DNA from: Candidatus Omnitrophota bacterium
GTDB lineage: Bacteria; Omnitrophota; Gorgyraeia; Zapsychrales; Fredricksoniimonadaceae
NCBI GenBank assembly: GCA_016201795.1
Contig: JACQCF010000004.1
Coordinates: 10,117-74,116 of the forward strand
Direction: 5' to 3'
Length of the DNA: 64,000 nucleotides
Shown here: piece after piece, positions 36,167 to 51,971 of the stretch
Numbering within the stretch: the stretch's first letter is position 1
Layout of the letters: each line of letters begins with the position of its first letter
The notes under the pieces: model-generated
The model's input: the letters and a program-made list of their open reading frames with translations, nothing else
What the model was told of the DNA's origin: nothing
Database searches by the model: none
Program-made: the position numbers and the translations under genes

Positions 36167-36243
36167 TCATATCCATTTTCCTTTTTAGTCTTTCCATTCC
36201 TGTGCGTCATTTTAAGGCGGTTTCAGGGTATAAACGTCTTATA

Positions 36244-36272
36244 TTGACAATAGGCACACAATAAGTTATACT
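36244..36272 (+). promoter_or_regulatory. Sigma70-like promoter TTGACA-N17-TATACT upstream of brnT
   Basis: Seen directly, 15 nt before the brnT ATG region. Confidence 0.5.
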
Positions 36273-36286
36273 TTGGCTGGTGCGGT

Positions 36287-36565
36287 ATGAAGCCATTTGA
36301 CTGGGATGACAACAAAAGCAAGGCCCTGGAAAAAGAACGGGGCATTTGTTTTGAGGATATCGTCATAAAAATAGAGGAAGGATTTTTATTAGACAATATC
36401 GATCATCCCAATAAAGCAAAATACGCGCATCAAAGAATACTGGTTGTCAACGTCAACGGTTACGCTTACGCGGTCCCTTATTTTGAAGATGAAAAAGTTA
36501 TTCATTTAATAACCATTTTTCCAAGCAGGGAACTGACCAGGATTTATTTAGGAGGCAAACAATGA
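36287..36565 (+). CDS. brnT: BrnT-family (DUF497) ribonuclease toxin
   Basis: MKPFDWDDNKSKALEKERGICFEDI... typical BrnT N-terminus. 92 aa. Overlaps the downstream antitoxin by 4 nt. Confidence 0.8.
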   Translation: MKPFDWDDNKSKALEKERGICFEDIVIKIEEGFLLDNIDHPNKAKYAHQRILVVNVNGYAYAVPYFEDEKVIHLITIFPSRELTRIYLGGKQ

Positions 36566-36843
36566 AAACACCATTAACTCGAAAGGAAGAAAAGGACCTT
36601 ATCGCCTCGGTGGAGCGCGGTGAATGGAAGCCGGTGAAAAACAGAAGCAAGGAACTGCTTCACCTACGGGAAGCCGCGCGGGAAACTTTAAGGAAAGACG
36701 CCCGTATTAATATCAGGTTAACCAAACGCGATTTTTTTAATCTTAAATCCAAAGCCGTAAGAGAAGGCATCCCTTACCAGACGCTTGTTGCCAGCGTCAT
36801 CCATAAATACTTGACAGGACAACTGGCTTCTTTAAGCGGTTAG
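36562..36843 (+). CDS. brnA: BrnA-family antitoxin (CopG/RHH-like)
   Basis: 93 aa, positioned immediately after brnT with ATGA overlap. Basic C-terminal region. Confidence 0.75.
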   Translation: MKTPLTRKEEKDLIASVERGEWKPVKNRSKELLHLREAARETLRKDARINIRLTKRDFFNLKSKAVREGIPYQTLVASVIHKYLTGQLASLSG

Positions 36844-36876
36844 TGTTCTCCGCCCCTATTAAGATGAGATCTTGCC

Positions 36877-37476
36877 ATGCTTCTTCGTTGTACTCAAAAA
36901 TTTCTCACCGAGCTTCGCCTTAAGAAAAAAGAGATCGCCGAATCTTGCGGAGTTTTGCATCCGTTGGATGAATGGTATGCGCACATCTTCTTTCTTTATC
37001 CTCGCAGAAAGAGCGCAATCTTTATGCACGCAAAGACAGGGTTTTGTTTCTTCGCCTTTGACCGGACACGGGATCAGTTAAATGACATTAAAGGCCTTTT
37101 TGGTAAATGCCTTGGCCGGGCCCTGTTTGATGAGCATTACCCTGCTTCGGTCATCAAGCTGTTTAATGAGCATCTTGAGAATATTCAAATAGGGCGGACC
37201 ATTGACCGAAAGATCGTGTCCCTGGTTAACCGGCGTCTCTTTGAATTGGGCTGTACTGGCGATTATCATCCTGATGACAGGCGAGTGCATGATGAGTTTC
37301 TTGCGGGACTGGATTTCCGCAGGGAATTGACACTCAAAGATTCTCGTTACCCAATTGAGCGGATGCGGGACCTTTTGGCAGGTCTGGATGAGTTAAGAGG
37401 GGTGGAGATACCTCCAGCGAAAGAGAAACATGAAGTTCTGGAAGCCTTTTTTGAGACGCTCAGGCGGAACAGATAG
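36877..37476 (+). CDS. Hypothetical protein (199 aa), no recognised domain
   Basis: ORF only. Confidence 0.5.
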   Translation: MLLRCTQKFLTELRLKKKEIAESCGVLHPLDEWYAHIFFLYPRRKSAIFMHAKTGFCFFAFDRTRDQLNDIKGLFGKCLGRALFDEHYPASVIKLFNEHLENIQIGRTIDRKIVSLVNRRLFELGCTGDYHPDDRRVHDEFLAGLDFRRELTLKDSRYPIERMRDLLAGLDELRGVEIPPAKEKHEVLEAFFETLRRNR

Positions 37477-50404: not shown

Positions 50405-50419
50405 CGGCGAGGTGAATAT

Positions 50420-50605
50420 ATGGAAAAAAGATATTTAACAGTTGTAGAGATTTCACAATACTTGGGTTTTAAACCAAGCGCCATTCGTAAATGGATTCGC
50501 CAGGGAAGAATACCATTTAACAGATTCCAAAGAAATATCCGCTTCGATCTTAAATTGATTGACCAATGGGCCAACGAGAGGCTTGAAAAAACACACATAA
50601 ATTAA
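50420..50605 (+). CDS. Excisionase/AlpA-like HTH DNA-binding protein
   Basis: LTVVEISQYLGFKPSAIRKWIRQGRIP. 61 aa. Directly upstream of the integrase. Confidence 0.7.
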   Translation: MEKRYLTVVEISQYLGFKPSAIRKWIRQGRIPFNRFQRNIRFDLKLIDQWANERLEKTHIN

Positions 50606-50742
50606 AATGAGATTATTCCTTGAAATCTCCAAGCAAAACATTCGATCGACGTTGAAATTATCTGCAAATGGTCTATAATTGAGAATGTTTATCGGTGGTA
50701 GGCCCATTTGCAAGAAAGGAGGTTTTGAAAGGAGAAAGTCAA

Positions 50743-51864
50743 ATGGGAACTACATTTAAACGCGGTAAGAAATGGGGTATTAGTGTTATTGATTCTCACG
50801 GCCGGCAAATACGAAAAATGGTTTCTTCTTATAAAGAAACCGCCGAGCGCATCCTCAAGAAAATTGAAACAGAAATAGTAGAGGGTAAATACCTCGATAT
50901 TAAGAAATATGAAAAGATTTTCTTTGAGGACTTTGCATCAGAGTATATTAAAACTCATGTCAGGTTGGAATTGAAGAATCCTAGAAATCAAGAATATATG
51001 ATTAATTGTTTGGCTACTCAATTCCGTGGAAAATATTTGCATCAAATCGATGCACTTATGATTCGTCAACATATGGCAAGAAGGTTGAGGGTTGTGCGTC
51101 CTGCTTCAGTTAATCGGGAGTTTCAAACTCTTAAATCCATGTTTAACCGAGCAATAGAATGGGGTATGTACTCTGGCAGTAATCCTGCCGTGGGCATTAA
51201 GAATGTTCCCCAAAATAACAGCCGTTGCCGGTGGCTTACGGAGGAAGAACAGGAACGCCTTTTGTCTTGCTGTAGTAATAACCTTACAAGAGTAATAATT
51301 CTGGTCGCGCTTAAAACAGGTATGCGTTGGGGAGAAATTGTTACGCTAAAATGGAAACAGGCGGCCTGCAGTAACTATGTGGATTTCGATAATGGTGTAA
51401 TTTTTGTTCATGAGTCTTTGGCCAAGAGCCAGCGCTCTCGGCATATTCCTTTAAGTGATGCTGTTCGTATGGCATTGCAGGGACTTGAACGAATTCCAAA
51501 CACTGATTATATTTTTTACAACCCGACGACTTTAAAGCCAATGGGGAGTTTAAAAAGATCATTCCACACAGCATTGAGAAGGGCCAAAATTAGCAATTTT
51601 AGGTTCCATGACTTGCGTCACACATTCGCTTCTCAGCTTGTGCGATGTGGGGTTGACCTTTATGTTGTTCAGAAATTATTGGGTCACACTTCACCAAAAA
51701 TGACACAGCGTTATGCCCATTTAAGATCAGATCAATTAAAAGAAGCTATTGAAAGAATCGATATGCAATCTAAAAATAATGTGTATCATGCGGATTCCAA
51801 CAATAGCACGTTTTTAGCACATTCTGATTTTGATAAGAAACAGGATATGAGCAATGTTTTATAA
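50743..51864 (+). CDS. Tyrosine-type site-specific integrase
   Basis: HDLRHTFAS...LLGHTSPKMTQRYAHL catalytic box. GGAG RBS before the ATG at 50743. Confidence 0.9.
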   Translation: MGTTFKRGKKWGISVIDSHGRQIRKMVSSYKETAERILKKIETEIVEGKYLDIKKYEKIFFEDFASEYIKTHVRLELKNPRNQEYMINCLATQFRGKYLHQIDALMIRQHMARRLRVVRPASVNREFQTLKSMFNRAIEWGMYSGSNPAVGIKNVPQNNSRCRWLTEEEQERLLSCCSNNLTRVIILVALKTGMRWGEIVTLKWKQAACSNYVDFDNGVIFVHESLAKSQRSRHIPLSDAVRMALQGLERIPNTDYIFYNPTTLKPMGSLKRSFHTALRRAKISNFRFHDLRHTFASQLVRCGVDLYVVQKLLGHTSPKMTQRYAHLRSDQLKEAIERIDMQSKNNVYHADSNNSTFLAHSDFDKKQDMSNVL

Positions 51865-51894
51865 CCTATTGAAATTAAAAAATTTGAGAGTTTT

Positions 51895-51971
51895 GGGTCG
51901 GTAGCTCAGTTTGGGAGAGCGCCTCGTTCGCAATGAGGAGGCCGGGGGTTCGATCCCCCCCCGATCCACCA
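51895..51971 (+). tRNA. tRNA-Ala (anticodon CGC at 51929-51931), CCA encoded
   Basis: Cloverleaf folded by hand: 7-bp acceptor with G3:U70, D-arm GCTC/GAGC, anticodon loop TTCGCAA, T-arm GGGGG/TTCGATC/CCCCC. Confidence 0.9.

Follow-up and report, generated by a model that had tools for sequence, protein, structure and literature searches.

We analysed a 64,000-nucleotide (nt) stretch of DNA from a Candidatus Omnitrophota bacterium (the window), which very probably carries an integrative and conjugative element (ICE) whose tyrosine integrase (Int, gene int) uses a tRNA gene with reversed polarity. The element extends from at least 38.6 kb, possibly from 36.2 kb, to 51.93 kb, lies 5' of the gene for tRNA-Ala(CGC), and has most likely lost its far end in this copy. 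We propose that the element has its own version of tRNA positions 1 to about 38 right after the int stop codon and would recombine with a chromosomal tRNA gene in or beside the anticodon loop. For the window copy, the predicted crossover is the loop TTCGCAA (51927-51933), which would be the right end of the island. The integrated element would then lie 5' of the tRNA gene, and the working tRNA would be a hybrid of the element's 5' half and the host's 3' half. The displaced host 5' half, together with its native promoter, would come to lie at the int-distal end, followed by the element's putative arm-type sites. Transcription of the hybrid tRNA would probably start within the element, at the int promoter or at another promoter in the 3' end of int.

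We observed the anatomy of the window, the int-to-tRNA arrangement across the family and repeats of tRNA positions 1-38 in complete relatives, and saw that island-free genomes have kept the tRNA with its right flank. What we infer is where exactly the crossover falls, that Int binds the end motifs, how the tRNA is transcribed, and that the element functions in conjugation.

Integrase orientation and the tRNA gene

ARAGORN found one tRNA gene in the window, on the + strand at 51895-51971. This tRNA-Ala(CGC) scores 62.8 bits in Rfam against a gathering score of 29, and in our reading of the sequence all stems and the G3-U70 pair are intact. The int open reading frame (ORF) stops at 51864, and tRNA position +1 comes 30 nt later, which agrees with an earlier note on this DNA, in which the integrase was described as reading toward the tRNA and ending 30 nt before it. 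We placed the int start at ATG 50743 since databases list the resulting 373-amino-acid (aa) product but not the longer one that would begin at GTG 50695. The motifs TGMRWGE, HDLRHTF, LGH and RYAHL were read from the translation and supply the catalytic R...HxxR...(H/W)...Y residues; the protein also matches solved integrases and XerA/XerC-like recombinases. Both a recombinase (PF00589/PF24624) and an excisionase (HTH_17, Xis) are present, and homologues of the excisionase sit before int in most related loci. The earlier description of an ICE-like island with type IV secretion system (T4SS), excisionase and integrase is borne out by a Pfam-confirmed gene set that runs from 39788 to 51864, entirely on the + strand.

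To the right of the tRNA we found rsmE, a yefM/yoeB pair, recA, recX, alaS and hisD, and the relatives of this RsmE are metagenome-assembled genomes of Omnitrophota. Three of them (L003, L004 and L007; RsmE 59-71% identical) have the order spoVG-(TA)-tRNA-Ala(CGC)-rsmE-recA-recX-alaS, where TA stands for toxin-antitoxin, and no integrase. A native promoter, TTGTCA-17-TAATAT, is common to L003 and L004 upstream of the tRNA and is absent from the window. Since the tRNA and its right flank are conserved in relatives without the integrase, both are chromosomal, and the island occupies the place of the native promoter region. The earlier note had named such conservation in island-free relatives as evidence against its account; the conservation was indeed found, and it excludes the whole tRNA as cargo while leaving the orientation unaffected. 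The same tRNA-Ala/rsmE/recA site is filled by related elements in other hosts (L050/57, L060, L065-67). The yefM/yoeB toxin-antitoxin pair lies at 52771-53286 between rsmE and recA, a gap of only about 100 nt in the closer relatives L003, L005, L006 and L009.

Contexts of integrase relatives were gathered by exact look-up and a metagenome scan, and all relatives come from metagenome assemblies. Among 8000 candidates scored, 4780 were related to the integrase at E<=1e-20, and the named ones are almost all Omnitrophota. Enough sequence downstream of int was available in 43 distinct loci, and in 29 of them a same-strand tRNA starts no more than 250 nt after int; in 5 further loci of this set a tRNA follows within 1.7 kb, behind small genes, and an opposite-strand tRNA after int was found in 0/43. 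Because 29/43 loci are co-oriented and none is opposite, the reversed orientation characterises the integrase clade as a whole. The island 5' of an intact tRNA with int co-oriented is thus seen in the window and family-wide, and the non-classical orientation described earlier holds for both. The clade uses eight tRNA species: Ala-CGC, Thr-TGT, Arg-ACG, Ser-GCT, Ser-TGA, Met-CAT, Lys-CTT and Gly-GCC. T4SS-bearing relatives sit 5' of Pro-GGG, Ser-TGA and Lys-CTT, and in one case the element's tRNA 5' half overlaps the int stop codon: in L139, a homologous ICE, tRNA-Pro(GGG) (21792-21868) shares 10 nt with the end of the integrase ORF. In two related loci, c-di-GMP-I-GGC riboswitches lie 3' of the integration sites (L095 15593-15671 and L109 7958-8038).

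Attachment sites in relatives and the proposed recombination

Direct repeats of the start of the tRNA bound four complete small elements: a 4.1-kb element at tRNA-Ala (L052, repeat of 38 nt), a 9.5-kb element at tRNA-Thr (L061/62, 40 nt), a 10.2-kb element at tRNA-Ser (L071, 42 nt) and a 10.7-kb element at tRNA-Lys (L075, 39 nt). The two copies are identical from tRNA +1 (or -1/-2) up to the anticodon loop, as far as its 3' edge, and show no relatedness in their flanks. Promoter-like sequence stands before the int-distal copy, and the int-proximal copy is a complete tRNA. The window integrase is 57-76% identical to three of the integrases with proven repeats and 42% identical to the fourth. 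In the tandem array L091, the first integrase (int_A) is followed solely by tRNA-Met positions -2 to 40, and the second element, of 3.6 kb, has its own integrase ending 5 nt before an intact tRNA-Met. This layout is what the model predicts for a second element entering a hybrid tRNA. In L054 and L058, which have close integrases, a degenerate tRNA 5' half is joined to a good 3' half. Taken together, the 5'-half repeats, the L091 array and the L054 and L058 chimeras show that the element brings the 5' half along and that the 3' half is the host's. A direct repeat of the tRNA 5' portion is present in L052, L061/62, L071, L075 and L091, and none is present in the window.

These repeats bear on the idea that the whole tRNA-Ala is island cargo and that the true attachment (att) site is elsewhere, for example to the right of the tRNA, as the similarity of 36243-36290 to 52727-52774 might suggest. 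The int-tRNA pair is found together in many contexts, and this 71%-identical 48-nt direct repeat brackets 36243-52774. However, tRNA-Ala(CGC)-rsmE-recA is kept in relatives without the integrase, the repeats of the complete relatives stop at the anticodon loop, so that only the 5' half is duplicated, and the L091 array leaves element A with just positions 1-40. The 48-nt similarity was also rejected as an att site, being that of two toxin-antitoxin operon promoters whose ATTGACAATA core occurs at the recA promoter too. We regard the carriage of the whole tRNA as largely refuted already and give it next to no credence. The 10-mer ATTGACAATA, which contains the -35 box, has 3 copies in the window (36243, 52727 and 53316) against 0.31 expected, each in promoter position before brnT, yefM and recA, and the brnT and yefM promoters share 71% identity across 48 nt.

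Another explanation places the island in the promoter or upstream region of the tRNA, with no recombination within the gene. The island does end 30 nt before an intact tRNA, and no fragment of the gene is duplicated in the window. In the complete relatives, however, the first 38-42 nt of the gene are duplicated, starting exactly at +1, and the pseudo-tRNAs of L054 and L058 with their degenerate 5' half put the junction inside the gene. We consider insertion upstream of the gene very improbable. The earlier note had offered carriage of the tRNA and integration at its 5' region as options; what stands is a blend of the two, with positions 1 to about 38 carried and the crossover inside the gene at the anticodon loop, and what falls is the whole tRNA as cargo.

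Several related loci show further tRNA remnants. The pseudo-tRNA beside the int of a homologous ICE in L054 (11146-11260; 29 bits) is intact in its 3' half and decayed in its 5' half, and a + strand copy of the left-end motif (TTCTTACAAATGGGTC) follows about 15 nt later in an attP-like layout; the contig was considered as a circular, possibly attP form and this was rejected, as its ends do not overlap. In L058 (1240-1520), a chimeric pseudo-tRNA after a 73%-identical integrase combines an Ala-like degenerate 5' half with the 3' half of another tRNA, and its 3'-terminal 22 nt (GGAATCCCGCCTTCCCGACCAT) recur some 170 nt further downstream, which would fit an additional small insertion of the classical 3' type. 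In a subclade with 38-42% identity (L094, L095, L098, L107 and L109), int is followed by ...TTGTCACGCTGAAGACCGCGAGTTCAAATCTCGTCGACCCCGCCA, which resembles the 3' half of a tRNA and has no 5' half that we could recognise; among these post-int sequences only that of L109 reaches the Rfam tRNA threshold (30.8 bits).

Two motifs mark the ends of the complete relatives. A 31-nt motif (TTTCTTGCAAATGGGTCTACTACCAATAAGT) lies about 30 nt inside the far end, and an inverted second copy adjoins the int ribosome-binding site. A TAGCAC-N5-TAGCACA repeat is present twice, once within the int 3' end and once some 120 nt inward from the far end. Only the int-side copies are found in the window, at 50688-50722 and 51804-51821. 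The 31-nt motif is presumably an arm-type Int site or an operator, and the TAGCAC repeat presumably an arm-type Int site.

For transcription of the tRNA, a sigma-70 promoter in the 30-nt spacer was considered and rejected, as the spacing between its conserved boxes, TTGAAA and TAGANT, is only 10-12 nt and both stand too near +1. The candidates are the int promoter (P_int, 50652-50679) and a box in the int 3' end, which reads TTGTATAAT in most relatives of the Ala group and TGTGTATCAT in the window. It is possible that P_int is the source of int-tRNA co-transcription.

A wider proposal, which we hold with slightly more doubt than confidence, is that this integrase clade, abundant in Omnitrophota, is obligately of reversed polarity. 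In such elements the 3' end of int would run on into the tRNA 5' half, the host tRNA would join the int transcription unit, and degenerate halves would knock out the tRNA. The clade would be the first integrase family described with 5'-half targeting as its rule and would drive both small mobilisable elements and a deep-branching T4SS backbone.

The int-distal end of the island

Several results weigh against the reversed-polarity reading. A second copy of the tRNA was absent when 51840-52000 was compared with the whole window on both strands by exact-word, blastn-short and ungapped scans. The window also holds no second copy of the 31-nt motif (best match 19/31, the level of shuffled sequence) and no second TAGCAC repeat. 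As the window has no second att site, the mechanism is transferred from relatives by homology and not demonstrated for the window copy. The int-distal site, attL, was not seen in any of 3 T4SS-bearing relatives with 20 kb of upstream sequence, and hence no T4SS-bearing member has been seen with both ends. The int-tRNA spacer has no consensus promoter at a sensible distance. Finally, Pfam and NCBIfam returned no canonical relaxase, only a sub-threshold Replic_Relax/MobC match.

The self-scan of the tRNA region stayed at chance level (longest exact match 12-13 nt; best 44-nt ungapped match 25/44), and the tRNA 5' fragment expected as a left-end signature was not found in the window. The earlier remark that no tRNA repeat lies near the left side was thus upheld over the whole window and both strands. 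The second att site that it expected a search to find is absent from the window, so the two att sites that delimit an ICE were not recovered here. For the absence of all three left-end signatures we favour the loss of attL over a position beyond the window or a chimeric contig. With the int-distal end missing, this copy has most likely lost attL and no longer excises precisely, and the island copy is probably immobilised. Its left boundary is not placeable more precisely than 36.2-38.6 kb or further left, which leaves the 36170 given earlier unproven.

Other approaches to the left end gave no att site. Tetranucleotide composition and GC skew were not decisive for the boundary (correlation of ICE with core 0.95). 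A 10-nt match (GTTTTGGGTC at 36091/51890) was rejected as chance (E about 7), lying inside an ORF and having no similarity past 10 nt. A 17-nt match to tRNA-Ser(TGA) at 22506-22522 was rejected as antisense within an ORF, with differing flanks. The breaks of two Logan contigs (L001/L002, runs SRR12113410 and SRR12113409), which end and start inside the tRNA anticodon arm at 51914-51940 with a 27-nt overlap, were unusable as empty-site evidence, as this segment is common to the tRNA-Ala genes of related species and the contigs are fragmented anyway. In the ICE relatives, a search for attL through inverted copies of the int-upstream region recovered only L052, and Rfam gave nothing meaningful on the left junction of L136.

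The same mechanism could apply to an intact island of more than 52 kb, with attL left of the window and the RHS, type II secretion system (T2SS), kinase and polyketide synthase (PKS) genes as cargo. The lack of attL in 51.8 kb fits this, as does its lack within 20 kb in the ICE relatives, and 23-50 kb is without the positive GC skew of both flanks. However, the GC skew of 1-23 kb equals that of the core genes right of the tRNA, this part encodes housekeeping-type T2SS and two-component genes, and the shared ICE sequence starts only at 38.6 kb. We judge an intact larger island unlikely. The left junction could also be an assembly artefact, in which a contig chimeric between 36 and 39 kb joins the ICE to unrelated chromosome. 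Many related ICEs co-occur in such metagenomes, and the Logan contigs of two runs are fragmented around the region; yet there is no direct evidence for a break, and two Logan contigs match the window exactly over 48178-53325. We give a chimeric junction only a small chance, and prefer an element that has lost attL.

A strong sigma-70-like promoter (36244-36272) precedes the leftmost candidate genes, a BrnT/BrnA-like pair whose homologues were not found in other ICE loci and which is possibly left-end cargo. The DUF6933 protein and the 288-aa protein that follow are possibly cargo as well. To the left of the BrnT/BrnA pair lie a small secreted protein and, overlapping it with its end, a 2945-aa RHS protein; further left come a T2SS cluster, two-component genes and a PKS. 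The RHS region (23000-36200) comprises a 490-aa RHS/BACON protein, a membrane protein, the 2945-aa RHS protein and the small secreted protein, which overlaps the RHS stop. Since the GC skew of this region is negative, unlike both flanks, it may be a separate acquired segment beside the ICE. In the T2SS cluster, the GspE-like ATPase is split over two adjacent frames (12016-12696 and 12698-13609), and its L050 homologue is one 577-aa protein; the split is either a frameshift or an assembly error.

Conjugative backbone and comparison with known systems

The mating-pair formation and coupling genes of an ICE are all present, full length relative to their homologues in related loci (Table 1). Collinear modules that run from Replic_Relax to Int, with 50-86% identity, are found in L135 (the L054 contig), L136 and L138-L141. 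VirB4 is 80-86% identical in related ICEs, and its best plasmid match in PLSDB reaches at most 26% identity (Myxococcus and Thermus plasmids). The Replic_Relax protein has 59 homologues, of which the named ones are nearly all Omnitrophota, and it stands at the left of every backbone copy. The conserved 12-kb backbone is a candidate conjugation system, and the lineage to which the element belongs has so far been seen only in uncultured Omnitrophota. The cargo left of the backbone varies per copy and includes ArdA, methyltransferases, restriction/defence genes and copper resistance. In L061/L062 (8941-9690), the 9.5-kb element with both att repeats has a 47% Replic_Relax homologue adjoining Xis-Int and no T4SS, and is likely a mobilisable relative of the ICE.

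The leftmost sequence common to other ICEs of this backbone is the promoter and leader at 38618-38720. The leader motif was also seen by eye at L136 9818-9900, and its hairpin part lies before the Replic_Relax gene in L135, L136 and L138-L141. The TPR gene stands between leader and inverted repeat in the window only, none being found at that position in L135-L141; a 32% homologue in L101 is located between the coupling protein and int. The inverted-repeat block upstream of Replic_Relax is a candidate origin of transfer (oriT) or operator.

Table 1. Features of the island and its junction with the tRNA gene (window coordinates)
Feature	Position	Strand	Basis
BrnT/BrnA-like toxin-antitoxin pair	36287-36565, 36562-36843	+	weak Pfam BrnT_toxin and CopG_antitoxin matches
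DUF6933 protein	36877-37476	+	weak PADLOC match (PDC-S63, a candidate defence family)
Unknown 288-aa protein	37525-38391	+	ORF
Promoter-like TTGACA-16-TAATAT, then short hairpin leader (GATTCCCCATCGGTG...CTTCCCCAAAC)	38618-38720	+	promoter scan; comparison with L136
TPR-repeat protein	38732-39679	+	weak TPR_11 match
Non-coding block, inverted repeat CAATTTCTTT...AAAGAAATTG, then CTTGCAAGATGTATTTTTTGTAAAGG	39706-39780	+	alignment of 7 ICE loci
Replic_Relax/MobC-like protein, sole relaxase candidate	39788-40543	+	PF13814 24.7 bits, just below cut-off; weak NCBIfam MobC_subf
TrbC/VirB2-like pilin candidate	40544-40876	+	tblastn 51% match to PF04956 TrbC gene of L054
VirB4/TraC ATPase	40812-43577	+	Pfam P-loop_TraG, TraC_F_IV, CagE_TrbE_VirB
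Single-stranded DNA-binding protein (SSB)	43606-43992	+	Pfam; homologues in relatives
Glycine-zipper lipoprotein	44007-44408	+	Pfam/comparison with relatives
Conserved unknown protein	within 44282-45151	+	conserved in relatives
VirB6/TrbL	45155-46066	+	Pfam; collinear homologues in L135, L136, L138-L141
VirB8/TraE	46069-46668	+	Pfam; collinear homologues, same loci
VirB9/CagX	46665-47489	+	Pfam; collinear homologues, same loci
VirB10/TrbI	47464-48396	+	Pfam; collinear homologues, same loci
TraV	48400-48672	+	Pfam; collinear homologues, same loci
Type IV coupling protein (T4CP)	48647-50404	+	Pfam TraG-D_C and T4SS-DNA_transf
Excisionase, 61 aa, HTH_17	50420-50605	+	ORF; PF12728 recorded on identical Logan contig
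Promoter-like TTGAAA-16-TATAAT 5' of int (P_int)	50652-50679	+	11/12 consensus match
31-nt family motif (TTTCTTGCAAATGGGCCTACCACCGATAAAC on - strand), abuts int ribosome-binding site	50688-50722	-	nhmmer E=6.7e-10
Tyrosine integrase, 373 aa	50743-51864	+	Pfam PF00589 3e-34 and PF24624 (Phage_integrase and Int_N); exact protein on record
TAGCAC-N5-TAGCACA repeat within int 3' end	51804-51821	+	comparison with complete relatives
Int-tRNA spacer	51865-51894	+	conserved among elements; unlike native promoter region of island-free relatives
tRNA position 1 to anticodon-loop end, putatively element-derived	51895-51933	+	analogy with att alignments of L052, L061, L071, L075, L091
Intact (putatively hybrid) tRNA-Ala(CGC)	51895-51971	+	ARAGORN, Rfam, sequence reading

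These findings matter for the annotation of genomic islands. Almost all island-finding tools and rules of thumb assume an element downstream of the tRNA with a 3' fragment. They would overlook a clade of opposite polarity or set its boundaries wrongly, in Omnitrophota and perhaps in other groups. The clade is also a natural test of why 3' targeting dominates, and a tRNA half right behind int is a way for an element to provide the promoter that it needs to supply. As the hybrid and degenerate tRNAs show, elements of this kind can rewire the tRNA genes of their hosts or inactivate them. Omnitrophota is an uncultured phylum without genetic tools, and the backbone is a candidate conjugation system there.

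Williams reportedly described in 2002 that tyrosine integrases of the P4/lambda type act at the tRNA 3' end, with one sublocation class at the anticodon loop, which the edge of the identity block at the anticodon loop resembles here. Like classical tRNA-targeting ICEs, the present element combines a tyrosine integrase with an HTH_17 excisionase, has a tRNA target, restores an intact tRNA, and carries T4SS and cargo modules. Unlike classical islands, it carries the 5' half, lies upstream of the tRNA, and leaves a displaced fragment that would keep the native promoter. Classical islands integrate at the tRNA 3' end, as summarised in PMC6563490. Their layout, with the island downstream and a 3' tRNA fragment at the far end, was not found here, as the window has no 3' fragment and rsmE-recA directly follow the tRNA.

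Phage tRNA-dependent lysogeny (PMC10865867) is a system in which integration can leave the host tRNA non-functional and the phage carries a separate replacement tRNA gene. The degenerate 5' halves beside int in L054, L058 and a 38-40% subclade are similar, whereas no separate replacement tRNA gene was seen here.

The T4SS resembles the conjugative systems of cultured bacteria (PLSDB) in its set of VirB2, B4, B6, B8, B9, B10, TraV and T4CP, and differs from them in a VirB4 with a best match of 26% identity and in having no canonical relaxase.

The closest parallel is a rare "reversed orientation" type of tRNA integration that Zhao and Williams are said to have described in 2002. As in that type, the element lies 5' of the tRNA, the 5' portion of the gene is duplicated (here in the complete relatives), and it falls to the element to make good the 5' part and to provide transcription. 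Unlike those isolated cases, we found a whole integrase clade with at least 8 tRNA species and dozens of loci, and the tRNA half stands directly after or overlaps the int stop on a T4SS-bearing conjugative backbone. Recombination at the 5' part of tRNA genes has been called "considerably less frequent", with Zhao & Williams 2002 and a few archaeal cases cited (PMC6563490). We found no paper describing this Omnitrophota integrase clade or ICE backbone. Recombination in the 5' part of a tRNA gene is thus already known but rare, and its clade-wide occurrence in Omnitrophota together with a conjugative backbone appears to be new.

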